From: Pseudobdellovibrionaceae bacterium | GTDB lineage: Bacteria > Bdellovibrionota > Bdellovibrionia > Bdellovibrionales > Bdellovibrionaceae | Direction of reading: 5' to 3' | Assembly (NCBI GenBank): GCA_039810425.1 | Contig: JBDHWW010000058.1 | Span: forward strand, 1 to 17,665 | Length of the DNA stretch: 17,665 nucleotides | Shown: in pieces, positions 1 to 11,608 of the stretch | Position numbering within the stretch: the first letter of the stretch is position 1 | Layout: each line of letters begins with the position of its first letter | Made by a program: the position numbers and the translations under genes | Notes under the pieces: model-generated | The model's database searches: none | Told to the model about the DNA's origin: nothing | The model's input: the letters and a program-made list of their open reading frames with translations, nothing else

Positions 1-71
1 CATCGCTATCTTGTTTTACTGTGGTAAACTGGAACTCTACCCTCTATAGGCACAAGAAAGTCGGAAGAACC
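1..71 (+). mobile_element. Right end of an ISL3-family insertion sequence (continues beyond the left window edge)
   Basis: Frame +2 (2..49) reads IAILFYCGKLELYPL*, resembling the ISL3 transposase C-terminus (AIYFHCGGLDLYP-like). It is followed by ...AAAGTCGGAAGAACC, which reads GGTTCTTCCG inward like ISL3 terminal repeats, and then by an AT-rich flank AAAAATAT (72-79). Confidence 0.75.
2..49 (+). CDS. ISL3-family transposase, C-terminal 15 aa (partial)
   Basis: atc gct atc ttg ttt tac tgt ggt aaa ctg gaa ctc tac cct cta TAG. Not in the ORF track because it is truncated by the window edge. Confidence 0.7.
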   Translation: MAILFYCGKLELYPL

Positions 72-256
72 AAAAATATATATTCAGGCGCTAAATGGAT
101 TTTAGCGGGCTCATAGGCTGCAGATGGTTTTGCATACGGAAAGGCAACGCGCAAAACGCCGGGCTCAGTATTTTTTTGTTTCATCGTCATAAAAAGACCT
201 CCGGCGACCAGCCGAACTGCACTTCCAATAGCAACCAATTTAGAGTTACGCTTCAT
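72..256 (-). pseudogene. N-terminal fragment of a membrane-anchored/exported protein, probably an ABC-type solute-binding protein, interrupted by the IS
   Basis: GGAG RBS, then ATG at 256. Basic N-terminus plus hydrophobic stretch, then LRVAFPY...YEPAKIHLAPEYIF. The last residues of the track ORF (VLPTFLCL*) are read from the IS end. The SBP identity rests on recalled resemblance only. Confidence 0.55.
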
Positions 257-277
257 GGCTCCACCAACATCATCTAC

Positions 278-571
278 TTAGTTGCAGATGGAGTCTTGGC
301 CCATCTTTTCAGTGGACAGACGACCCTTGCGGTTGAGTGCCTCGATGAAGGAGTTCTTTACTTTAACTTCTCCATATTCGGTAACATCTAAGGCGCCCAT
401 CGTGTGAAGGCGTCTAAGAAGCTCCGCAATCTCAATCAATCGCTTGGCATCTCGTGCCTTAAGTTCAATGACGAACTCTGGCGGCGGTGGTTGATTAGGT
501 TCTGCGTTTGCGCCACTTGCTACGGTTATCATTGCCACGAGTAGCGATGTAATCAAGACGTGTTGTTTCAT
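278..571 (-). CDS. Small secreted protein (97 aa), signal peptide, single Cys in the C-terminal ..DSICN
   Basis: Sec-type signal MKQHVLITSLLVAMITVASGANA|E; PPPP linker; GAAGGGG RBS; ATGA overlap with the upstream regulator stop (568-571). Confidence 0.85.
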   Translation of the reverse strand: MKQHVLITSLLVAMITVASGANAEPNQPPPPEFVIELKARDAKRLIEIAELLRRLHTMGALDVTEYGEVKVKNSFIEALNRKGRLSTEKMGQDSICN

Positions 572-1998
572 ACCAATTCCCCTTCTTTTTTCTGGTTTGT
601 GTTAGCAAATTCAATTCCTAAAGATTTAAGTCGCCCCTGTAGGGTGCTGTTGCTGACTTTTAATATGTCCCGTGCAAGTTCTCGGATCGAGCGGGCACTT
701 TTTGATTTCTCGGCCAAAAATTTTCGTTCTTCATTTTCATTTCGGATACGCTGATGATCTTTGAACATTTGGTAATCCAAATTGAAACTCAGTGGTCCAT
801 GCGTGGCTTTCTCGATGGCTTCACGGATTTTCGGGTCGAGGTCGTCAGGTGTGATTTTAGTGGCTGGTGCAAGCAGCATCATACGTTTGACCTCATGTTC
901 AAGCTCGCGCACGTTTCCGGGCCACTCATAGCGCATCATGAGTTTCACGGTTTCTTCGAGAAACTCTTTTTCAATAGTTTTTTCTTTGGCAATGATCCTA
1001 GAAAATCGATGCACCAATGGCTTGATGTCCTCGGGGCGGCGGCGAAGTGGCAAAAGATTAATCGGCAGCCCTTTGATTCGATAAAAAAGATCCTGCCGAA
1101 ATCGTCCCGCAGGGACCGCTTCATCCAAGTTGACGTTGGTCGCAACGATGACCCTGGTGTTCACCTTTTTAGATTCATTGCTACCGACAGGGCGCACTTC
1201 GCTTTCTTGTAAAAAGCGAAGCAGCTTTACTTGTAGCAAGAGCGGAAGGTCACCAATTTCATCTAGAAAAATCGTTCCGTTGTCAGCCGCATTCACAAGT
1301 CCAACTTTGTTTCGGAGTGCGCCGGAGAATGCACCTTTCTCGTGACCAAAGAGTTCACTTTCAAGTAGGTCCGGCGGGATTGCTCCGCAGTTGACCGGAA
1401 TGAATGGACCTCGACGCCCGGATAAATTGTGAAGGGCGCGAGCGATTTTTTCTTTGCCGGTCCCATTTTCTCCGGTGATCAAAACGGTTTCATCTTGCGG
1501 AGCGTATTTTGAAATCAGATCGGCCACTTCTACCAAGTGGCGTGAGCAACCTGTAATACAGATGGTATTGATTTTAGCGATATCGGAAGCGGACACAGGT
1601 TCGATTTTTATCGTCTTGTTGGACTCTTCAAAGCGGTTGCAAAACATCTTAACGATTGCCAGAAGTTTGTCGGCTTCCATGCCTTTGGGAATAAAATATT
1701 GAGAGCCCGCCGAGAGAGTATTTCCCAGAGCGTCGGCGCTGGTGTCGCCAGAGTAGGTAGCAATTTGTAAATCGGGATCGAGTGCTGAGAGAGTCTCGGC
1801 GACCTTTGCCCCGCTTAGGCCGGGCATATGATAATCAACAATGGCGAGTGAAATTGCGCCGCGATTTTGACGAACGTATGCGATGCCTTCATCAGAATCC
1901 GTGGTGGCCCTGACTTGAAAGTCTTGACCCTCAAGCAAAAACTCAAGCCCTTGGAGATCCAGCTCGCAGTCGTCAATGATAAGGATTTTGTGTTTCAT
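568..1998 (-). CDS. Sigma-54-dependent response regulator (NtrC/AtoC-like REC-AAA+-HTH enhancer-binding protein)
   Basis: REC: ILIIDD, IVDYHMPG, IPKG. AAA+: GENGTGKE Walker A, VNCGAIP, ESELFGHEKGAFSGA, FLDEIGD, GRFRQDLFYR, WPGNVRELEH. C-terminal HTH: IRELARDILKVSNSTLQGRL. Confidence 0.97.
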   Translation of the reverse strand: MKHKILIIDDCELDLQGLEFLLEGQDFQVRATTDSDEGIAYVRQNRGAISLAIVDYHMPGLSGAKVAETLSALDPDLQIATYSGDTSADALGNTLSAGSQYFIPKGMEADKLLAIVKMFCNRFEESNKTIKIEPVSASDIAKINTICITGCSRHLVEVADLISKYAPQDETVLITGENGTGKEKIARALHNLSGRRGPFIPVNCGAIPPDLLESELFGHEKGAFSGALRNKVGLVNAADNGTIFLDEIGDLPLLLQVKLLRFLQESEVRPVGSNESKKVNTRVIVATNVNLDEAVPAGRFRQDLFYRIKGLPINLLPLRRRPEDIKPLVHRFSRIIAKEKTIEKEFLEETVKLMMRYEWPGNVRELEHEVKRMMLLAPATKITPDDLDPKIREAIEKATHGPLSFNLDYQMFKDHQRIRNENEERKFLAEKSKSARSIRELARDILKVSNSTLQGRLKSLGIEFANTNQKKEGELV

Positions 1999-2024
1999 TT
2001 CTTTATACCCCTGGCCATTCCCTG

Positions 2025-2040
2025 AGCAACCCAGGTGCCA
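2025..2040 (-). promoter_or_regulatory. Sigma-54 (-24/-12) promoter of the regulator-peptide-SBP operon
   Basis: Minus strand reads TGGCAC-CTGGG-TTGCT, matching TGGCAC-N5-TTGCW. Predicted start is about 2014, followed by an AGGGG RBS and ATG at 1998. Confidence 0.85.
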
Positions 2041-2137
2041 GTTGGAGTACGAAATTCGGATCAGAGGTAACCTATCGGAATGAGATAAAAATCTGGCGCG
2101 TGGGCAGCCTTTGTAAACAACGCTTGGTTACCAAAGG

Positions 2138-2155
2138 TGACCGGAGAGCCGGTCA
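2138..2155. promoter_or_regulatory. 18-bp palindrome copy 1 (candidate upstream activator site)
   Basis: TGACCGG-AGAG-CCGGTCA, about 125-140 bp upstream of the predicted sigma-54 start. Confidence 0.6.
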
Positions 2156-2241
2156 GCTCAAGCCTTTCAAGGAAAATGCAAGCTGAGTATAACTTAGCGA
2201 AATTATAAATCTTTTTGCTTAAATTTTTAGCTGAGTTGAAG

Positions 2242-2259
2242 TGGCCGAAACTCAGGTCA
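2242..2259. promoter_or_regulatory. 18-bp palindrome copy 2 (degenerate)
   Basis: TGGCCG-AAACTC-AGGTCA; extends to AAGTGGCC-N8-GGTCACTT. Confidence 0.45.
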
Positions 2260-2324
2260 CTTTATGAGGTGCGAAATGTTACTAAGGTTAACGTACTGAA
2301 ACTATTTGAAAAACAGACGAAAGT

Positions 2325-2346
2325 CGTGACCGGAGCGTCGGTCACG
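2325..2346. promoter_or_regulatory. 18-bp palindrome copy 3 (could also serve as a hairpin downstream of the TA operon)
   Basis: CGTGACCG-GAGCGT-CGGTCACG; the core at 2327-2344 is 16/18 identical to copy 1. Confidence 0.55.
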
Positions 2347-2405
2347 GTGATTCTATTCCGATTACCGAGTAAATTTTACGCAAAAAATGAGATGTGAATA
2401 CGAGG

Positions 2406-2759
2406 TTAATCCTCGTCAGATTCATGAGTCATCTGGAATTGGCGAAGTTGTCTAGGGTATTTTGAGTCGATGAATTCAAGCAGTGTGATTATTTTTTTTG
2501 TTTCATCAGTGGTCCAAGTAACCAAATAACGACCGCCATAAAGTGGGAACCGTCGCACGCCCGAGATTTCATCGGCCTGTCCAATACGGGGAGTTTTTTT
2601 GAGATGGCTTTTTAAGCCATTCACTTCTTGCTGAAGCTCATAAAGTTTTTTATCAGCGAAATCCTGAGACTGCTCAAGGTTGTGAGAGTATAGCCAAAAT
2701 ATAGCCTCCTCCATCTCAACCTTGAATTTGTCGGATTCTTGAATTGCAAACCCTTCCAT
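2406..2759 (-). CDS. Type II toxin, RelE/ParE-like
   Basis: 117 aa, coupled to the antitoxin by a TAATG overlap. ParE-like C-terminal pattern LKKTPRIGQ...GVRRFPL..RYLVTW...IITLLEF. Confidence 0.75.
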   Translation of the reverse strand: MEGFAIQESDKFKVEMEEAIFWLYSHNLEQSQDFADKKLYELQQEVNGLKSHLKKTPRIGQADEISGVRRFPLYGGRYLVTWTTDETKKIITLLEFIDSKYPRQLRQFQMTHESDED

Positions 2760-3055
2760 TAACCGACGGCTTTCTTTGATTTTCTACCGGCGAGTGCTCG
2801 TTGTTTTGCTCGTGCAAATACGTCTGCTGTAGAGTTCTCAGTTGCTGGCGTAACACGACCTTGAGCGACATCCATCAAACTCGCGGTGAGTCCCTCTAAC
2901 CGTGCAAGATCGAGTTGCATCTTCTCAAAAATATCGGCGTTGAGAAGAACGAAAGCCTCACCACTTTTACGAGTGATTTTTACTGGCTCATTTCGAGCTG
3001 CTTCCATCCACTCCTTCATGTTTGATCTAAATTGGTCTGCACTTGTTCTGTCCAT
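2759..3055 (-). CDS. Type II antitoxin, Phd/YefM family
   Basis: N-terminal SADQFRSNMKEWMEAARNEPVKITRKSGEAFVLL is Phd/YefM-like; AGGAGG RBS. Confidence 0.9.
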   Translation of the reverse strand: MDRTSADQFRSNMKEWMEAARNEPVKITRKSGEAFVLLNADIFEKMQLDLARLEGLTASLMDVAQGRVTPATENSTADVFARAKQRALAGRKSKKAVG

Positions 3056-3071
3056 ACTGACCTCCTATAAT

Positions 3072-3103
3072 CAAACAGTACAATTAACCGTACTGTTTGT
3101 CAA
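3072..3103 (-). promoter_or_regulatory. Sigma-70 promoter of the TA operon overlapped by its operator
   Basis: TTGACA (3103-3098)-17 bp-TACTGT (3080-3075). Perfect 10-bp inverted repeat CAAACAGTAC-N8-GTACTGTTTG (3072-3099) with GTAC cores, as in Phd/YefM operators. Confidence 0.85.
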
Positions 3104-3164
3104 TAGCTAAACATAACCCACTGTAAACACTAGACAAATACAAACACCGTATTGCGGTAAATTA

Positions 3165-3374
3165 TTAGCGATAGTTTTTAGGGTTATACTCCTTGCAGGC
3201 GTTTTTGTTTACGATCGACGGGCAACCCCAGCTCGATGAAGCGCCAGCAAGAGCCTTGCCTCGAAGCTCGGCAATCATCTTCCACGGAATGTCGGCGCGT
3301 CCGACCATCGCGCACGCGATATAGAATCCCAAAAACACTTTCGCTAAATTTTCGATAGAACCTTGAATGCCCAT
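3165..3374 (-). CDS. Small hypothetical membrane protein (69 aa)
   Basis: AAGGAG RBS before ATG at 3374, a better start than the 3488 given in the track. One hydrophobic segment (VFLGFYIACAMVG); C-terminal WGCPS...C. Confidence 0.7.
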   Translation of the reverse strand: MGIQGSIENLAKVFLGFYIACAMVGRADIPWKMIAELRGKALAGASSSWGCPSIVNKNACKEYNPKNYR

Positions 3375-3406
3375 GGCAGTCTCCTTGTTAAAAAGGGTTT
3401 GTTGTG

Positions 3407-3454
3407 TGACCGAATGCTCGGCCAGATTTTTATTTTTGACCGAAAAGTCGGTCG
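3407..3454. promoter_or_regulatory. 18-bp palindrome copies 4 and 5
   Basis: TGACCG-AATGCT-CGGCCA (3407-3424) and TGACCG-AAAAGT-CGGTCG (3437-3454), exactly 30 bp apart, upstream of the 69-aa gene. Confidence 0.55.
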
Positions 3455-3579
3455 ATTTGCCGATGCCGCAAAAATGCAGAATCGGCACGATTTGTGTCCG
3501 GTCTCTGTCCGAAAATGGAAGAAAACGGGCTAAAATGGAGAAAAGTAGGAAACACCCAACTCATAGAGTCTTCGGTGTT

Positions 3580-3626
3580 AAAGCGTCTTCTAACGCTTTG
3601 AAAGCATTCAAAAATTAAATGCTTTC
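3580..3626. repeat. Two abutting inverted repeats
   Basis: AAAGCGT-N6-ACGCTTT (3580-3599) directly followed by GAAAGCATTCAA-AAA-TTAAATGCTTTC (3600-3626, 11/12 arm match). Confidence 0.7.
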
Positions 3627-3668
3627 GAAGATTTAGAAAACTCAGTTCAAAAGTCTCAAAAAACCATC

Positions 3669-6600
3669 GTGCCTAACGTCGGCATTGGGACGACGACTCC
3701 AGATCCAAATTATAAAATGGATATTGCCACCACTTCAACAGCCACAACAGGCAGCATTGCCGGGCAGCATACTAAGATAACTCACTCACCTACAGCATCT
3801 GCGACTGGGGCTAAAGTTTACGGTTCATACACCGAGGCAACAACAGCTGCGTCTCAGGATCTCTTCCAGCTAACTGGTTCATATACAAACACAAACTACA
3901 GCACATCAGACATGACTAATTCGGTTTGGTCTGTTGATGGCTCTAATGCAAATGTAACTGTGGCAGGCGCAGGGAGTTTCAATTACGTTGCAGGTATGAC
4001 GTCGAACGCTACATTTTCTGCGTCAGGTACGGGCAATGGCTATGGAATCAAGGCTGATTTTCTTATGGATGGAACTGGCACCCTAGCTACTGCTGCCGGT
4101 GGAAAATTTACTAGTACAACTAATAAGACTCTCGCATATGTGGCCAATTCTTACGGCGTTTTCGCTGAATCAAAAACAGCACTTGGAACGGTGACAGACG
4201 CATACGGTATCTATAGTATGGTTACTCAAACTGGTGGTACCACTACGAATGCATACGGCGTATATATAGGCCACGTACAGGGCTCAAACGCTAATAGTAA
4301 ATGGTCCCTTTATACATCGGACAGCGCAGCGCCCAGCTATTTCGCGGGTAACGTCGGGATCGGGGTGCCTCTTCCAGCTACGAAGCTTGATGTCAACGGC
4401 TCTGTTCGCGTGGGCGCGGATGCAACCTCATGCGCTGCCGGTATTGCCGGTGCGATTCGATATAACGGTGGCAACGTCGAATATTGTAATGGCACCGCCT
4501 GGACTCCGCTGGCCGCTTCGGGTGCTGGTATTACTTCACTCAATGGCTTGACTGGTAATACCCAAACCTTTGCAACGCCTGGCACTTCGGGTAATGCTCC
4601 AAATTGGTCTTTCGCTGGCTCGACTCACACACTGAATATTCCAATGGCTGCAGCGTCGGGTTCCGTCACGGCAGGTCTTATCAGTAATGCTGACTACGCT
4701 TCAATGATGGCAAAACAGTCCAATGCTTTAGCTAACAACAAAGTGTGGATCGGAAATGCTTCCGGCGGAGCTGAGGCTCACACCCTTTCAGGGGATGCTA
4801 CGATTGATAATACGGGTCTTGCGACCTTGAAATCCGTGGGCACTGCCGGAACATATTTTAAAGTCGTCACCGATGCCCAAGGCCGCGTGACTTCCGGATC
4901 TGCCCTTGCTGGTTCTGATGTAGCCGCAGCTCTGGGTTACACTCCGGTGAATAAGGCTGGCGACAGCATGGGTGGTGATTTGATCACTCAGAACCTCAAT
5001 ATCACTAACGGTAAATACTTAGGCCTTGGTACTACCAGCACGGCCGGTACTGTGGCTGGTCAGATGTGGTTTGAATCCGGATTCATCAAGTACTTCGACG
5101 GTACTGCGACGCAATCTTTAGGTGTTTCGGGTGCTGGGATCACAAGTCTTAATGGCCTCAATGCAGTCACTCAGTCTTTTGTGACCGGCTCTGCCGGGAA
5201 TGCCCCTGCGATTGCCTCTGCCGGTAGCACTCACACACTGAATATCCCAATGGCTTCTGCGGGTTCCGTCACGGCGGGTCTTATCAGCAATGCTGACTAT
5301 GTGGCATTTAATAGTAAGCAAAGCAGTGCTTTGTCTGATTCCTATGTATGGATCGGTAACAGCACTAATGGCGCTGAGGCTCACGCGCTTTCTGGAGATG
5401 CGACGATTTCAAATGCGGGACTGGTTACGGTTGATAAAACTCAGACCGGGAATGCGCTTAAAATACAGCAACTAGATAGCAGCGGTGTTGCTAAATCCTT
5501 GGGTATTGGTCTTATCAACAGCGGGACTGTCCGTCTCTTGCCGGGAACTCCTGCTACGGCGTCTTATGATTTGAAATTGCCCATTGTTGCTCCGGCTAAT
5601 AATCAGATCCTAAAATCCGATGCGACGGGAAGCCTTTCTTGGGTGACGTACCTCGCCCAAGTTTCTGATTCCGCGCCTTTGGCGGATGGTAAAATGTGGA
5701 TCGGTAACGGCTCTAACATCGCTGTTGAGCAGACGATGTCAGGAGATGCGACGATTTCAAATGCCGGTCTTTTGACTCTGAAATCCGTGGGCACTGCCGG
5801 AACATATTTTAAAGTCGTCACCGATGCCCAGGGCCGCGTGACTTCTGGATCTGCCCTGGCTTCCGGAGACGTGACAACTGCGTTGGGTTACACCCCGGCC
5901 AATGGTGGCAACTATGTGGCCAAATCCGGCGATACTATGACGGGCGCATTAAATTTACCAAGCGACGGTTTAAGTGTAGGCACGTCACAATTGGTGGTCA
6001 GTGGTGGCAATGTCGGCATTGGGACGGCGACTCCAAATTACGCCTTGGATGTTGCTGGCGTCTACGTCCCTATTCGCGCGAAAGCCTCCGCCCTCACCGC
6101 GGACGTATTGCGTCTAGAGGGGCACGGTGATCCTTCTGCCGTATTTAAGATGGACAATCCTTACGGCAGCACCACGGATACATTTAGGCTGCGCTTCACC
6201 GGCGTGGACACTAATCCTCAGGATGTTGATCTTGCCACTATTACAGGAGCCCAAACTCAAAATGGAGTGGGGAATCACGCCGGCTATATGGCTTTTTCGA
6301 CAGCAAAATCGGGTGCACTTCATGAGCGCGTACGTATTTCAGAGGGTGGCAATGTCGGCATTGGTACTACCGGGCCGAATGCAGCAGCCCTTTTAGATCT
6401 GACCAGTACAACCCAAGGCTTTTTGTTACCACGAATGACCGCGGTTCAGCGTAACGCAATCACGACTCCGCCTGCAGGATTGCAGATTTACAATACGGAT
6501 TCAAGCTCTGTGGAGTTTTATAACGGCACGGTCTGGACCGCACTGGCAGCCAGTGTCACTAATAAAGCATCTCTCACAAACGGCAGCATTTGGATTGGTA

Positions 6601-7184
6601 ATGGTTCAGGGATCGCCGGCGAACTGGTCCCAGGCACTGCAAATAATATCCTTTACGGATCTTCTACTTCGGCTTGGGCTTCAGGAACTGCCAATACGGC
6701 GGGCCTCGTTGACAAGACGACTGCTCAAACCATCGCTGGCGTGAAGACATTCTCTTCAACAATTACTAGTAACATCGCTTCGGGATCAAATGCCGTTGAC
6801 GCCGCTAACGGTAATATCAGAGCAGGAACTGGTGGCTCTTCTGTTGCCGGCGGTGGTCAGATCTACGCCGCTGCATTCGATGCCACGGCGAGTGGAACTA
6901 TCGACTTCAATAAGGGTAATATCCAAACTACCACCTACGATTGCACCGGCTCCGGCGCCGCATCGAAGATCAATCTGACGAACATGCAGTCCGGTGGTAG
7001 CTATACTCTTGTAGTGACCGGTGGTACGGGCGGTAAATGTACCTTGCAACACGCAGGGACAGATATTGCCGATACCCAGTACGCGCCGACGAACGCTGCT
7101 CGTACTTCTGGCAAGACGACTATCTACACGATTATCAAAGTCGGTAACGTGGTATATATCTCTTGGATCCAAGGCTTCGGATAA
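3669..7184 (+). CDS. Bdellovibrio-type trimeric fibre/adhesin (MAT-like, phage-tail-fibre-like), apparently lacking its 5' end
   Basis: 1171 aa, G/S/T/A-rich. (G)NVGIG motifs at 3675, 4347, 6006 and 6348; GAIRYN..EYCNGTAW and LPRMT..QRNAI..P.AGLQIYNTD motifs; TDAQGRVT repeats. It starts at a GTG two codons before NVGIGT with no signal peptide or RBS, and there is an in-frame TAA at 3591. Confidence 0.85.
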   Translation: MPNVGIGTTTPDPNYKMDIATTSTATTGSIAGQHTKITHSPTASATGAKVYGSYTEATTAASQDLFQLTGSYTNTNYSTSDMTNSVWSVDGSNANVTVAGAGSFNYVAGMTSNATFSASGTGNGYGIKADFLMDGTGTLATAAGGKFTSTTNKTLAYVANSYGVFAESKTALGTVTDAYGIYSMVTQTGGTTTNAYGVYIGHVQGSNANSKWSLYTSDSAAPSYFAGNVGIGVPLPATKLDVNGSVRVGADATSCAAGIAGAIRYNGGNVEYCNGTAWTPLAASGAGITSLNGLTGNTQTFATPGTSGNAPNWSFAGSTHTLNIPMAAASGSVTAGLISNADYASMMAKQSNALANNKVWIGNASGGAEAHTLSGDATIDNTGLATLKSVGTAGTYFKVVTDAQGRVTSGSALAGSDVAAALGYTPVNKAGDSMGGDLITQNLNITNGKYLGLGTTSTAGTVAGQMWFESGFIKYFDGTATQSLGVSGAGITSLNGLNAVTQSFVTGSAGNAPAIASAGSTHTLNIPMASAGSVTAGLISNADYVAFNSKQSSALSDSYVWIGNSTNGAEAHALSGDATISNAGLVTVDKTQTGNALKIQQLDSSGVAKSLGIGLINSGTVRLLPGTPATASYDLKLPIVAPANNQILKSDATGSLSWVTYLAQVSDSAPLADGKMWIGNGSNIAVEQTMSGDATISNAGLLTLKSVGTAGTYFKVVTDAQGRVTSGSALASGDVTTALGYTPANGGNYVAKSGDTMTGALNLPSDGLSVGTSQLVVSGGNVGIGTATPNYALDVAGVYVPIRAKASALTADVLRLEGHGDPSAVFKMDNPYGSTTDTFRLRFTGVDTNPQDVDLATITGAQTQNGVGNHAGYMAFSTAKSGALHERVRISEGGNVGIGTTGPNAAALLDLTSTTQGFLLPRMTAVQRNAITTPPAGLQIYNTDSSSVEFYNGTVWTALAASVTNKASLTNGSIWIGNGSGIAGELVPGTANNILYGSSTSAWASGTANTAGLVDKTTAQTIAGVKTFSSTITSNIASGSNAVDAANGNIRAGTGGSSVAGGGQIYAAAFDATASGTIDFNKGNIQTTTYDCTGSGAASKINLTNMQSGGSYTLVVTGGTGGKCTLQHAGTDIADTQYAPTNAARTSGKTTIYTIIKVGNVVYISWIQGFG
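4519..5420 (+). repeat. Internal ~100-aa module duplication (about 4519-4820 and 5128-5420)
   Basis: Both copies: GAGITSLNGL...AGSTHTLNIPMA...GSVTAGLISNADY...KQS.AL...VWIGN...GAEAH.LSGDATI.N.GL, with visible nucleotide similarity. Confidence 0.9.
4828..5861 (+). repeat. 83-bp near-identical in-frame direct repeat (4828-4910 and 5779-5861)
   Basis: First 52 bp identical; 3 mismatches in total, all at synonymous third positions; offset 951 bp (317 codons); encodes KSVGTAGTYFKVVTDAQGRVTSGSALA. Confidence 0.95.
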
Positions 7185-7251
7185 TGGAATAAAAAAGGAT
7201 TAGATTTGTCCGCCGCCTAGTACTATACCGAATTGTCGGAGGAGTACTATC

Positions 7252-7614: not shown

Positions 7615-8634
7615 CTATACTCGATCGCTTTTCGCCCACAGAAGATGGTCCGCGAGCACCAACCACGTCATAGATTCCAGCACTGGAATCGCGCGGGTTA
7701 CGATGCAGGGATCGTGACGGCCTTTTTTTGCGACATCGAGGATTGATGATGTCGGTTTGAACTGCACTTTCAGCAAAATCTCTTCGCCGGTGGAGATACC
7801 TCCACGGATACCGCCGTAGTTCTCAGATTGAGACGATGCATGAAAGGTTGTGCCTTTCCCGTTCGGTGCTGCTTCGCTGCCCGCCCCCAGCTCCACGCCT
7901 GAAGTCGCTCCGACGCTCATATAGGCCTGCGCCAGGTCCGCCTTCAACTTATGGAACACGGGCTGCCCTATGCCGCCAGGTACGCCCTTAATACGAATCT
8001 CCGCCGTCCCTCCGTAGCTTTCCCCTTGAGACTGTGCAAGCGTTAATAGCTCTTTCACCTTCTCATGCTGAGCCGACGGAAATCTGGCGGTGAAGCTATC
8101 AACGTCTTGGGTCCAAACTTGCGCGCGTTCAGTTTCAGACAGCCTGTAGATACCAACTTGGCCTGCATACACTTTGAGCTGCAAGCCCGGAACAAGCTGC
8201 TTACACAACATTTGTGCGACAGCCCCCGCCATCACCCGGGCCACAGTTTCCCGACCCGAAGAGCGGCCACCACCACGATGATCGCGATGACCAAACTTCA
8301 TCTGCCACACATCATCCGCATGACCCGCTCGCGAAGAGTTTTTAATCTGATCGTAGTCCTGCGGCTTTTGATCCTTGTTGCGAACCATGATCGCTATGGG
8401 AGTGCCAATCGTTTGACCTTCAAAGACACCACTCAGCACTTCAGGAGCATCTGCTTCCTGACGTTGAGAAACCAGGCGTCCACCGGGACGGCGACGTTCG
8501 AGTTCTTTCACTAAGAGGGCTTCGTCGAATTTGAGTCCGGCGGGACAGCCGTCGATCACGACACCCAAAGCCGTGCCGTGGGATTCGCCGAAGGTTGTGA
8601 TGACAAACCTCGATCCGAAGGAACTTGCACTCAT
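7615..8634 (-). CDS. aroC: Chorismate synthase
   Basis: TTFGESHG, RRRPGG, GGGRSSGRET, GGIRGGISTG, FKPTSSI, GRHDPCI. ATG at 8634 overlaps the upstream stop (ATGA). Confidence 0.98.
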   Translation of the reverse strand: MSASSFGSRFVITTFGESHGTALGVVIDGCPAGLKFDEALLVKELERRRPGGRLVSQRQEADAPEVLSGVFEGQTIGTPIAIMVRNKDQKPQDYDQIKNSSRAGHADDVWQMKFGHRDHRGGGRSSGRETVARVMAGAVAQMLCKQLVPGLQLKVYAGQVGIYRLSETERAQVWTQDVDSFTARFPSAQHEKVKELLTLAQSQGESYGGTAEIRIKGVPGGIGQPVFHKLKADLAQAYMSVGATSGVELGAGSEAAPNGKGTTFHASSQSENYGGIRGGISTGEEILLKVQFKPTSSILDVAKKGRHDPCIVTRAIPVLESMTWLVLADHLLWAKSDRV

Positions 8635-10436
8635 GGCTGAATCTCCCAAAATTCTCGTTGATGTTGGGCCTGCGTCCGAAACATTTTTACACCTGAACGA
8701 TATTCCGCTCCGATTCTATGGGCATATTCGCGGCCTGCGGAATCGTCGGTATAATTTAAATCAAGAACCAGTTTTGGCTTCCACTCAGGCTTCGGCCATT
8801 TCATATCACCTTTTCTCGGCGCCGCCCACACCAACACATCGGGCATGACTTCCTGGCTCCAGCGTGCCTGGTCTTCTTCACGAACCTCGCCACGGGTTGC
8901 CGAGAAGCAATACGACTGTGGCAATACTTTCTTCATTATGTTCAGCGTCCCGCCGCCGCCCCAAAGCACGACGGTGTCTTTCTCACTAATCCCCTCGGCC
9001 AAATCCCGGAATCCCGCAAAGTCCGTATTGTGACCCGCCCAGCGTTTTTGGGCTGAATTGTAGTAGAGCGTATTCACGGAACGTAGAAGCTCCGCTTCAC
9101 TGGTTTTTTCCTTACTGCTATGAAATGCTTCTTCTTTCAAAGGAGACGTCACCGCCGCTTGCTTTAAACCCAACACTGAAAGAGTGCGTAAGGCCGACTC
9201 CCACTCACGCTGATCAACCTCGATACGGAAAACGGGCTCATTACGCTCTTCAAAAAAAGCCTTCTGCTCCATTGGCGTCCAACTTTGCTTGATGGGTTTA
9301 CCCAAGACCGCCGCGAACTGAGTTTTAATAAAGTGAACACTGAGCCACTCGTAAACCGTCGGTTGGTCGGCGGCGCTGCCATCGCCCTCCCGCCAGAAGT
9401 TCAAGAGCTGTCGACCCTTCATCCACAAACGGAACCAAGCCCATCGGCCATTCACCGATCGCGGCAAGAAACTGCGATTGTGCGGATCCACTTGCTGCCA
9501 GAGATAGCCCACCAAAAGCTCGTCGTAGGTTTCAACAACCGGAGCCAACTTCAGGTGCGCACACTTGCCGGTTTGATCATTCAAACGCGAAATGGCCTCT
9601 TCGAGGGACTCGCCCGCGATGCGATCATGTAAAGAGATAATAAGCCGCTGCTTTAAAAAACGCACCGGTTGCGGCATCTCGCCGAGCTCCACGGCCCAAT
9701 CATAGTAAGCAATCTGACCGCCCTGTGGGTAGTTCCCGGTCTTTCCGGTGCGGAATGAGAAAATGAATTTCTCCGAAAACAGCGAACCCAAGCAAGTTTG
9801 GACCTGATCATGGTTTAAAAGATCGTCACGCATTTCAAAAAACTCAACACCATGGTTCGCGTGACTCTCAATAAATCCATGCCAGCGATTTTTCTTCAGG
9901 AAAACCTCAGGCAAAATCGTCACGCCGCCCGCAAGAGCCCTTGTCTGCCGCACCAGAATTTGCTCTTCCATTGTATCGACTTCCGTGAGGCCTTCCGGCA
10001 TCATATAAATCTGATCGTAGACATTACGGAACTGGAATTCCCGAGCCTTCGCGCGCTTCTCGTACTCTTCAAGGGGTGGCAAATCACTTTCCAAGCGTGG
10101 CCGATCTAAGAAAATGCGCCCGGCGTGATCGGTCGCTCTTTGCACCCAAAGCACGCGCGCATGCTCGGGAATCACCCCGACCGGAAAACCACCGCCGACC
10201 GCGATCCAGCAACTTGGCTGAGAAAGGATGATCTCATGAAAGATCCGCTTCTCAAGATCGCGGAAAGCAGGCTCACCCTCTATTTCGAAGATCTCACGAA
10301 TGGTTTTCTTTGCACGCTTCTCGATTTCTTGATCAAGATCAAAACAAGGGACTGTCGAAGAATCGGTGTAGCGATGGATGCGTTTGAGCAACTGGGTTTT
10401 ACCGACACCTCTCTGGCCAACAATCACATTGATCAT
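8631..10436 (-). CDS. Trifunctional shikimate kinase / type I 3-dehydroquinate dehydratase / shikimate dehydrogenase (AroK-AroD-AroE fusion), 601 aa
   Basis: AroK: GQRGVGKT, DLDQEIE, IFEIEGEPAFR, VGGG, RPRL. AroD-I: EMRDDLL, IFSFR, IISLHD, HLKLA. AroE: VLGKPIKQS, VTSPLK, VNTL, NTD, GGGGT, DLNY, QA. ATG at 10436 overlaps the aroA stop (ATGA). Confidence 0.88.
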   Translation of the reverse strand: MINVIVGQRGVGKTQLLKRIHRYTDSSTVPCFDLDQEIEKRAKKTIREIFEIEGEPAFRDLEKRIFHEIILSQPSCWIAVGGGFPVGVIPEHARVLWVQRATDHAGRIFLDRPRLESDLPPLEEYEKRAKAREFQFRNVYDQIYMMPEGLTEVDTMEEQILVRQTRALAGGVTILPEVFLKKNRWHGFIESHANHGVEFFEMRDDLLNHDQVQTCLGSLFSEKFIFSFRTGKTGNYPQGGQIAYYDWAVELGEMPQPVRFLKQRLIISLHDRIAGESLEEAISRLNDQTGKCAHLKLAPVVETYDELLVGYLWQQVDPHNRSFLPRSVNGRWAWFRLWMKGRQLLNFWREGDGSAADQPTVYEWLSVHFIKTQFAAVLGKPIKQSWTPMEQKAFFEERNEPVFRIEVDQREWESALRTLSVLGLKQAAVTSPLKEEAFHSSKEKTSEAELLRSVNTLYYNSAQKRWAGHNTDFAGFRDLAEGISEKDTVVLWGGGGTLNIMKKVLPQSYCFSATRGEVREEDQARWSQEVMPDVLVWAAPRKGDMKWPKPEWKPKLVLDLNYTDDSAGREYAHRIGAEYRSGVKMFRTQAQHQREFWEIQP

Positions 10437-11608
10437 GGACGAACTCCTACATACTTCCAAAACTCAGGAAAACTTTTACGAACGACATCGGGATCAAGGA
10501 TCTGAATATCTTCGCCGAAATATTTTAACAAGGCCGCGGCAAATGCCAGGCGGTGATCTTTATCAGGATCGAAACGGAAACTCTTTGCCTGGAAGACACG
10601 GCCCCGGCCCAAGACCTCCATGCCATCTTTGCGTTCTTTGACGGAGACACCGGCTTTTTGCAATAGCTCTGCGGTTTTCTGAATGCGATTGGACTCTTTA
10701 AACGCCAACTGAGGAGCCCCATACAACACAGACCGTCCCTCTGCAAAACTGCAAAGAACCGCAAGCACCGGAAACAAATCCGGCGAATTCCGCAAATTTG
10801 CTTTTACCGGTTTTAACCTCTTGGATGACTTTACGATCAGCCGCCTTGAACTCCGTGCTTCGCCAACGCCCATCTTTTTCAGGATGCGCGTAAATGCCAG
10901 ATCCGGTTGCAGGCTCTTTGCTGGAAAATCCTGAAAAGTCGCTTGGCCGGAAACTGCCGCAAACACAGCTACGCTAAAGAGCGAGCTCAAATCGGACTCA
11001 ACCGCATACTTCGTGAGCTTTATCGCCTGCCCGCGTGGAATCGTATACATATTTCCACGGCAAGAGTATTTCAAACCAAGATCTTTCAAAACCCGCAAAG
11101 TCATTTTAAAATAGCCCGCCGAAGTGATGGATCCCGGCACTTTGACTTGCAAATCAAAATCGAGATTCCAGGCATTAAGAAACAGCGCCGACAAAAACTG
11201 ACTCGACTCGTTGGCCCTCACCGAAAGAGCTTTTGCGGGCGCCTTCCAGCCGCTGGAAATAATTCGCAGGCCTTTCTTTTCAAAGCGCACTTCAACACCA
11301 AGCTGCCGCAGAATCCGCGGAATTTCTTGCTGCGGACGACTGAATAAACGCGGAGTTCCTTTTAACAAAAATTCACCCGGCAGGCGCGATACCCGAAACG
11401 CCAAGAAACGCAATGTCGTTCCACCCTCGCCGCAATCAAGCACGGAGCTTTTCCCCAGCTTCTTTAAGTTGGCCTTCATATGAATGACGTCGTCGCAGCT
11501 CGAGTCCCCAACGAGCTTCAAACGTGGTTCGTAGCTCTGAGCAATCAGCGCACGATTCATCAACGATTTGGAGGCAGGAATGCGGCCATGGAACTTGAAG
11601 ACTTTCAC
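10433..11608 (-). CDS. aroA: EPSP synthase (3-phosphoshikimate 1-carboxyvinyltransferase)
   Basis: PASKSLMNRAL, GEGGTTLRF, SSQFLSAL, KESNRI, DHRLA, KSFPEFW; GTG start. Confidence 0.97.
   Translation of the reverse strand: MKVFKFHGRIPASKSLMNRALIAQSYEPRLKLVGDSSCDDVIHMKANLKKLGKSSVLDCGEGGTTLRFLAFRVSRLPGEFLLKGTPRLFSRPQQEIPRILRQLGVEVRFEKKGLRIISSGWKAPAKALSVRANESSQFLSALFLNAWNLDFDLQVKVPGSITSAGYFKMTLRVLKDLGLKYSCRGNMYTIPRGQAIKLTKYAVESDLSSLFSVAVFAAVSGQATFQDFPAKSLQPDLAFTRILKKMGVGEARSSRRLIVKSSKRLKPVKANLRNSPDLFPVLAVLCSFAEGRSVLYGAPQLAFKESNRIQKTAELLQKAGVSVKERKDGMEVLGRGRVFQAKSFRFDPDKDHRLAFAAALLKYFGEDIQILDPDVVRKSFPEFWKYVGVRP

Follow-up and report, generated by a model that had tools for sequence, protein, structure and literature searches.

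Positions 72 to 2346 of contig C58 from a Pseudobdellovibrionaceae bacterium hold a sigma-54 promoter and three genes on the minus strand, the third of which is cut off by an insertion sequence (IS). The entire contig of 17,665 bases was analysed and is referred to as the window; it belongs to an assembly of 149 contigs (G000, 3.54 Mb). On balance, and with modest confidence, we read this stretch as the promoter-proximal part of a conserved, mobile-element-associated sensory operon of five genes, which constitutes an autoregulated circuit with a YcaO-modified secreted protein or peptide. In relatives, the conserved order of the genes is activator, small secreted protein, family-5 solute-binding protein (SBP, Pfam SBP_bac_5), miniature YcaO (mini-YcaO) and histidine kinase.

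In the circuit proposed for intact copies, the cytoplasmic mini-YcaO would modify the small protein in the backbone of its (S/T)-(I/V)-Cys tail, e.g., to a thiazoline, and the modified protein would be exported by Sec. In the periplasm, the small protein or a peptide freed from its tail would be bound by the SBP, which would signal to the kinase, and the kinase would phosphorylate the activator. The activator would then bind palindromes upstream of the operon and fire the sigma-54 promoter of its own operon, resulting in positive feedback. The small protein would thus be the signal; here we infer the substrate of the YcaO, the ligand of the SBP and the output controlled by the circuit.

Promoter, palindromes and activator

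The features of the operon in the window are, in the direction of transcription:

2326..2345, no strand: palindrome 3, GTGACCGGAGCGTCGGTCAC, a perfect copy (0 mismatches) about 290 nt upstream of the promoter
2241..2260, no strand: palindrome 2, GTGGCCGAAACTCAGGTCAC, a degenerate copy (2 mismatches)
2137..2156, no strand: palindrome 1, GTGACCGG-AGAG-CCGGTCAG, 1 mismatch, about 100 nt upstream of the promoter
2025..2040, minus strand: sigma-54 (-24/-12) promoter TGGCAC-N5-TTGCT, exact match, sequence TGGCACCTGGGTTGCT
568..1998, minus strand: gene for an NtrC-type sigma-54 enhancer-binding response regulator of 476 aa (Pfam REC, Sigma54_activat, AAA_lid_14)
278..571, minus strand: gene for a secreted small protein of 97 aa with signal peptide, linker, small helix-hairpin-helix domain and, at its end, a flexible tail (...DSICN)
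74..256, minus strand: first 61 codons of a membrane-anchored family-5 SBP gene, cut by the IS, with 57-84% identity to homologues carrying PF00496

A first-pass annotation, made from the sequence alone, had described a consensus sigma-54 promoter upstream of a phosphorylatable sigma-54 activator, a small exported protein overlapping the activator, a membrane-anchored gene 21 nt further on and three related palindromes upstream, and all of these were recovered. The promoter (2040-2025) ends 26 nt ahead of the activator ATG at 1998. The activator reveals a receiver domain (Response_reg PF00072, 1.8e-16, residues 5-116) with D9/D10, the acceptor D55 in VDYHMPG and K105, as well as an AAA+ domain (Sigma54_activat PF00158, 8.6e-64; AAA_lid_14, 7.2e-21) with Walker A at 176-183 and GAFSGA at 222-227. 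Over its full length it is 37-45% identical to the activators of intact modules. As it scores 261 bits against the LuxO model NCBIfam NF041946, far under the cut-off of 800, it is not a LuxO equivalog. The start of the small gene overlaps the activator stop by 4 nt (ATGA), and the N-terminus of its product is signal-peptide-like, ending ...ASGANA/EP. The third open reading frame (ORF) starts at 256, 21 nt downstream of the small gene, and opens with a hydrophobic N-terminal anchor.

The exact motif TGGCAC-N5-TTGCW has a single match in the window and was found in 2 of 200 shuffles; in the whole genome, 13 exact matches stand against about 3.3 expected from base composition, and rpoN (sigma-54) is encoded on contig C31 (219 bits). 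The three palindromes, with mismatches counted against GTGACCG-N6-CGGTCAC, measure 20 bp each and are spaced by 104 and 85 nt. The genome contains four matches at up to one mismatch, two of them in the window, and 26 at up to two. Palindrome 1 is a candidate activator-binding site.

It might be argued that unrelated genes lie side by side by chance and that promoter and palindromes are chance matches as well. At one mismatch, the sigma-54 motif is indeed expected 0.69 times per window and is not significant by itself. The exact promoter, however, has an expectation of 0.01, the window contains four palindromes at up to two mismatches where 0.02 are expected (none of 200 shuffles reaches four), and many genomes share the same order of genes, which contradicts a chance arrangement. 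We regard this explanation as extremely improbable.

Upstream of the activator start, a motif GGCA[CT]-N5-TTG[CT] was found at a distance of 23-77 nt in seven relatives' loci (L013, L014, L016, L017, L018, L019, and L022). Including the window, a sigma-54-type motif thus precedes the activator in eight loci; the activator-bearing loci number ten, among which L020 and L021 offer little or no upstream DNA to inspect. In five of these loci, the sequence is GGCAC-N5-TTGTA, with a -12 element that is non-canonical. When five upstream regions were aligned, a palindrome GGTGGCGG...CCGCCACC near -207 and an element GGTGAC-AAA-(g)TGACC near -150 emerged as conserved, in addition to the promoter. The GTGACC-type half-sites of the window are related to, yet different from, these blocks. 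Since sigma-54-type motifs and palindromes recur before the activator genes, self-activation via sigma-54 appears to be a conserved design. The proposal that the activator drives its own operon is therefore plausible, at the level of motifs.

A fourth palindrome copy with 2 mismatches is located at 3406-3425. A sigma-54-like site (9 of 11 positions) at about 3246-3261 points toward an antitoxin gene described below, and the fourth palindrome lies some 145 nt upstream of it in the minus direction. Both together could represent a second activator target, or chance.

Conservation of the five genes

Sixty genomes of relatives were searched with a full-length SBP homologue, and 11 loci were taken by SBP similarity, referred to as family loci. 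The activator gene lies directly upstream in 10 of them (in one of these ten, it is cut by a contig end), and a small ORF occupies the space of about 300 nt that separates activator and SBP genes in 11/11. Ten of these ORFs measure 89-108 aa and the eleventh measures 139 aa; all share a signal-like start and a Cys near the C-terminus. Downstream of the SBP gene, all 11 loci contain a YcaO-like gene, followed in all 11 by a kinase gene. The kinases (417-660 aa) have two transmembrane (TM) segments separated by a loop of about 90 aa, as well as HisKA/HATPase_c domains, sometimes with a weak receiver domain. L003, the closest readable relative, whose SBP is 96% identical to the homologue P0009, shows the SBP gene, a YcaO gene of 331 codons and the start of the kinase gene. 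Co-occurrence of the genes in other genomes had been named as the check on the first-pass reading, and its outcome is in favour of this reading, with activator, small ORF and kinase found at these frequencies in loci that had been chosen by SBP similarity.

A second sample of 20 diverse loci from the phylum was drawn by YcaO similarity; one was dropped as mistyped, leaving 19. Here, the SBP gene is directly upstream of the YcaO gene in 13 loci, the kinase gene is downstream in 13 and the activator gene is upstream in nine, and 11 of the 15 loci examined for a small ORF contain one with a Cys tail. L026 and L030 are variants in which the activator gene is followed by mini-YcaO and kinase genes, with no adjacent SBP gene and no obvious Cys-tail ORF. 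Gene content, order and conservation of the operon are thus directly established.

The components diverge at different rates. Over seven modules (21 pairs), mean pairwise identity is 29.0% for the small protein, 32.1% for the YcaO, 39% for the kinase and 49-51% for SBP and activator. Several divergent copies of the module can occur per genome, namely three in G014 and two each in G057 and G036. Within a few kb downstream, eight of the 11 family loci contain genes of a type IV secretion system (T4SS), i.e., VirB2-type pilin, TraL, and VirB4/TraC, whereas such genes lie within about 7 kb in 2/19 phylum loci. The link to conjugation is therefore strong in the family of the window, and not general.

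In the genome of the window, conjugation genes (pilin, TraL, VirB4/TraC and two more) are located on a separate contig, C61:279-6612. They are 62-82% identical to those beside the intact module of L018 and are preceded by a serine recombinase gene, not by the sensory operon. Candidate sigma-54 sites before transfer genes were found in two of seven loci (L016, L021) and none on C61, and no occurrence of the palindrome motif was found near C61. Control of the T4SS or conjugation genes by the module is therefore not supported and is not claimed.

The third gene could be assigned through its homologues. The fragment of 61 aa alone has no Pfam match, and it is 84, 80, 62, 58, and 57% identical to the N-termini of five proteins of 515-518 aa that bear PF00496 (2.1e-9 in the full-length homologue P0009). 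By its full-length homologues, it is thus the start of a family-5 SBP gene, as had been suspected earlier. No ABC permease or ATPase genes neighbour the SBP gene in three fully scanned loci (L013, L014, L018). As the next genes encode YcaO and kinase rather than an ABC transporter, we class the protein as an orphan, sensor-type SBP. When the mature small protein was co-folded with the SBP that is probably its cognate partner (P0007 and P0009 alignments, respectively), the scores were 0.02 and 0.00, compared with a mark of 0.32, which is evidence neither way.

The small protein belongs to a large and divergent family. A single-sequence search of the 60 relatives' genomes gave no match outside G000, since the family is too divergent for a single query; members were then found by position and by profile. 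The profile search yielded 176 representative clusters at E up to 0.001, from which 148 listed members of at most 160 aa each were used for statistics. A signal-like N-terminus and a Cys within the last 16 residues are each present in 144/148 members. The tail Cys is preceded by Ile in 105 and by Val in 23 (128/144), Ser or Thr occupies position -2 in 101, and usually one residue, or four to six, follow the Cys. A C-terminal (S/T)-(I/V)-Cys motif is thus the hallmark of the family. In an alignment of 16 small proteins, Met1, one Leu and the tail Cys are the only invariant positions, leaving the Cys as the sole invariant residue of the mature protein. In the AF2 model, the helix-hairpin-helix at residues 39-81 reaches a predicted local distance difference test (pLDDT) score of about 87-90, and the Cys-bearing tail falls below 50-70.

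Further searches with the small protein added little. A fold search returned no significant match (best E 0.43, a weak likeness to winged-helix parts of DtxR/IdeR), a protein-atlas look-up had its sole match, at 0.75, to a cluster without name, and no match to the alignment was found among metagenome contigs. One match on a genome contig was rejected as a false positive, an aminodeoxychorismate-synthase-like ORF with YGEVKVKN in common. The loci L024, L025, L029, L031, and L032 contain longer small ORFs of 138-171 aa with two helix-hairpin-helix units and a single C-terminal ...(T/I/V)C tail.

The fifth gene of the set, located between the SBP and kinase genes, encodes a soluble protein of 262-325 aa in the 11 family loci, or 331 aa in L003. 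Pfam YcaO PF02624 matches four of five proteins tested (E 4.9e-6 to 0.013), one of the five over the cut-off of 25.7 bits, and the SagD-family model TIGR03604 matches one mini-YcaO at 2e-9 (36.8 bits against a cut-off of 219). An AF2 model built from a 10-sequence alignment (pLDDT 83.7) finds 6ci7, 4q86, 6peu, 4v1v, and 6gos as top Foldseek matches, with E about 1e-8 and TMq 0.57-0.66. These YcaO structures comprise thioamidating archaeal YcaOs, E. coli YcaO, LynD, and McbD. A profile search of PDB sequences likewise places YcaOs first, with the MJ1094 YcaO at 0.001. The YcaO fold is hence directly established. The invariant residues include GRG and two E-x-x-E-R motifs, which probably correspond to the ATP/Mg site, and the model and the sequence matches together identify the protein as a putative miniature YcaO enzyme. 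Its profile is present in 70/401 sampled genomes of the phylum and absent from G000. With regard to precursors of peptides that are made by ribosomes and modified after translation (RiPPs), a small ORF with the (S/T)-(I/V)-Cys motif is encoded together with the YcaO in 11/11 family and 11/15 phylum loci. The first-pass annotation could not take this gene into account; with a mini-YcaO in the operon, the Cys-tail peptide is probably modified rather than unmodified.

These properties of the small protein and its neighbours bear on the main rival to an autoinducer circuit. Here, the small protein would be a periplasmic accessory or modulator of SBP and kinase that is kept by its producer, and the module would sense a ligand from outside (foreign peptides or those of cell walls, for instance) or would serve the mobile element as a bistable, cell-autonomous switch. 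The confidently folded domain of about 43 aa in the mature protein, together with the Sec signal, speaks for a periplasmic protein; family-5 binding proteins generally bind peptides; the SBP is far better conserved than the small protein; and beside T4SS genes, as in most family loci, an on/off switch would be useful. Left unexplained are the YcaO gene, which is kept in the operon in every family locus, and the invariant Cys in the flexible tail. We judge this explanation somewhat unlikely.

According to another view, the small protein would be a YcaO-modified periplasmic effector without signalling function, e.g., one that binds a metal or stressor, and SBP, kinase and activator would regulate it upon stress. 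The NikA/Opp family includes binders of metal complexes, and nickel-type NCBIfam models match the SBP at E 0.0012, far below cut-off. Bufferins (PMC11626156) offer a model: their precursors are small folded Sec-signal proteins of 80-120 aa, in which Cys residues are converted to heterocycles in the cytoplasm before export to the periplasm. Bufferins differ from the module in that they have several Cys, rely on an MNIO plus DUF2063 rather than a YcaO, buffer copper, and have no SBP, kinase or activator in the operon. In our family, 71/148 listed members have only a single Cys, which is poor for metal chelation, and location on conjugative elements as well as divergent copies per genome fit element-specific control better than a housekeeping stress role. 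An effector of this kind is, in our view, improbable.

The interrupted copy and its surroundings

The third gene ends after 61 codons because it is interrupted by the end of an IS, which forms the edge of the contig:

1..70, no strand: terminal segment of a multi-copy IS at the contig edge, with the exact IS boundary at about 68-72

Positions 1-68/72 are identical to the ends of contigs C3, C18, C70, and C102, and the opposite end of the IS was found on C33, C55, and C110. Both termini have the 16-nt CACAAGAAAGTCGGAA in common. Altogether, five contig ends bear one terminus and three the other, the body of the IS being unassembled. In X1, which is the likely source run, the depth of the segment reaches 513, compared with 15.7 for the rest of the window, i.e., about 33 times that of the flanking DNA.

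The intact operons of relatives contain both an SBP and a kinase gene; in G000, nothing was found of the SBP and kinase that had earlier been proposed beyond the IS. None of C33, C55, and C110 contains any continuation of the SBP gene, and the remainder of this gene was not found in the assembly, also with the sequence of the closest relative as query. No YcaO gene was matched in G000 by the YcaO profile, the L018 protein or the protein of the closest relative, and the cognate kinase was not found in the assembly. In run X1, no contig joins position 72 to non-IS DNA continuous with the operon, a result that says nothing on an IS-free allele; contigs of runs X2 to X4 (about 90-95% alike) are short and end before the IS junction. 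The assembly is 99.9% complete by marker genes and has no contigs below 2.5 kb, so that a short stranded piece of the operon could have escaped assembly. In the window, promoter, activator gene and precursor gene are intact, and most of the SBP gene, the YcaO gene and the kinase gene are gone. Most likely, this copy is a defunct or orphaned remnant of the operon.

The remnant resides on accessory DNA (1-7200), which gives way to ordinary chromosome with aro genes, UDG, and LexA from 7252. Upstream of the operon, a Phd/YefM-type antitoxin gene (2759-3055, minus strand; PF02604 at 1.8e-8) is overlapped by one base by an ORF of 117 aa without Pfam match (2406-2759, minus strand); together, the two genes (2406-3055) probably form a toxin-antitoxin pair of type II within the accessory block. 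An ORF of 1171 aa (3669-7184, plus strand) belongs to no Pfam family and contains long internal repeats, with blocks like ...SGDATI.N.GL... and ...TAGTYFKVVTDAQGRVTSGSAL...; its product resembles a repetitive protein of surface or fibre type and is dissimilar to the large proteins encoded upstream of the module in L013 and L018. On the chromosomal side, within the aroC/aroA/aroB cluster, an ORF of 609 aa (8631-10460, minus strand) unites an N-terminal shikimate kinase with a shikimate dehydrogenase N-domain near residue 385, which is an unusual fusion.

Weighing the circuit against known systems

Apart from the conserved gene order, the proposed circuit with a YcaO-modified signal is favoured by the observation that small protein and YcaO are the two fastest-diverging components and that multiple divergent copies occur per genome. 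With the bufferins (PMC11626156), there is a precedent for Sec-signal precursors in which Cys is modified in the cytoplasm ahead of export. Several points weigh against the circuit. HTH_8 has no match in the last 77 residues of the window activator, even at E up to 10; the homologous activators of L013 and L014, which align to it over the full length, do bear HTH_8 (4e-8 and 9e-11). The -12 element of most relatives is TTGT, not TTGC. None of the usual YcaO partners (E1-like/RRE, TfuA, dehydrogenase) was seen in Pfam scans of the loci, and the YcaO gene is separated from the small gene by the SBP gene. A folded periplasmic protein of 73 aa is not easily released by a Gram-negative cell, so that a diffusible signal would need further processing. 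At 49%, the SBP is rather conserved for a receptor matched in specificity to such a divergent small protein, a discrepancy that would vanish if the ligand were the conserved S-I-C tail. Modification chemistry and ligand binding are steps that we infer. Finally, the copy in the window cannot sense by the proposed route, because kinase, YcaO and most of the SBP were not found in its genome.

A more far-reaching version of the circuit is conceivable, and we offer it tentatively, as a possibility rather than an expectation. The mini-YcaO, acting without partners, would heterocyclise or activate the (S/T)-(I/V)-Cys tail of the precursor, and the freed tail would be sensed outside the cytoplasm by the orphan OppA-like protein and the kinase, with positive feedback through sigma-54. 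Each divergent copy would then be a private channel timing the transfer of its own conjugative element, and the module would represent a RiPP-type autoinducer of Gram-negative predatory-type bacteria.

Parts of the module have counterparts in well-known systems. The staphylococcal agr locus is an autoinducing-peptide circuit of the AgrD precursor, AgrB, AgrC, and AgrA. Like the module, it is one autoregulated operon with a Cys-containing precursor, a possible modifying enzyme, a membrane histidine kinase and a self-activating response regulator. In contrast to agr, AgrB peptidase, an AgrC-type multi-TM receptor and LytTR were not seen in Pfam scans of three full module loci. The precursor of the module has a Sec signal and a folded domain, and its candidate modifier is a cytoplasmic mini-YcaO. 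Further differences are the interposed orphan family-5 SBP, the sigma-54 activator, the 2-TM HisKA/HATPase_c kinase and a host of Gram-negative type with a periplasm.

In the LuxP/LuxQ/LuxO system of Vibrio, a periplasmic binding protein acts with a histidine kinase, and a response regulator that depends on sigma-54 provides the output. Because of this LuxO route, quorum signalling through sigma-54 is not new in itself. Both systems combine a binding protein, a kinase and a sigma-54-dependent regulator. However, the ligand autoinducer-2 (AI-2) is not gene-encoded, there is neither precursor nor YcaO, and LuxP is from a different SBP family. In pheromone-responsive conjugation of enterococci, PrgZ, an OppA-like protein encoded on pCF10, passes the peptide, which is destined for a receptor inside the cell, on to the Opp permease. 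The likeness to the module consists in a family-5 peptide-binding protein that is encoded on a conjugative element by the transfer genes and tied to a small gene-encoded peptide, whereas the SBP of the module has no adjacent permease genes and is followed by a kinase instead. In ChvE/VirA/VirG of Agrobacterium, plant sugars and phenolics are the ligands, and an OmpR-type regulator controls a T4SS. The resemblance lies in a periplasmic binding protein, a histidine kinase and a response regulator beside type IV secretion genes; the differences are the OmpR-type regulator and the lack of an encoded precursor, and in the module, the link to the T4SS is one of gene proximity.

With YcaO-dependent RiPPs, among them azol(in)e peptides like microcin B17, and with thioamidation enzymes, the module shares the YcaO fold, the E-x-x-E-R motif and a Cys-bearing C-terminal core behind a recognition-type N-region. 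Unlike these, the mini-YcaO has 265-331 aa compared with 360-750 aa of the matched solved enzymes, and it comes without visible partner proteins. Moreover, the precursor is a signal-peptide protein, and the genes lie within a two-component operon, not in a transporter-bearing biosynthetic cluster.

Full-text literature searches returned no description of this gene combination. ICE-like elements in Bdellovibrio are mentioned in the excerpt of PMC3539863, and this module does not appear in that excerpt. Relative to two-component circuits of the autoinducing-peptide kind, the new elements are the YcaO and the orphan binding protein.

Peptide signals that are gene-encoded, enzyme-modified and sensed by a kinase are textbook knowledge in Gram-positive bacteria and rare in bacteria with an outer membrane. 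To our knowledge, YcaO enzymes have been described in connection with antibiotics and cofactor-like modifications and not with signalling. A mini-YcaO in a two-component operon by DNA-transfer genes would join RiPP chemistry to the control of horizontal transfer, and it would offer a tractable YcaO of small size, directed at one defined target site. Both the mini-YcaO and the small-protein family are sizeable, as the genome and cluster counts given above illustrate, and both are unannotated. The window itself presents a decayed copy and shows that the module is gained and lost with mobile DNA; should the module be a RiPP-type autoinducer, this copy would represent a naturally occurring variant without a sensor, either 'producer only' or dead.

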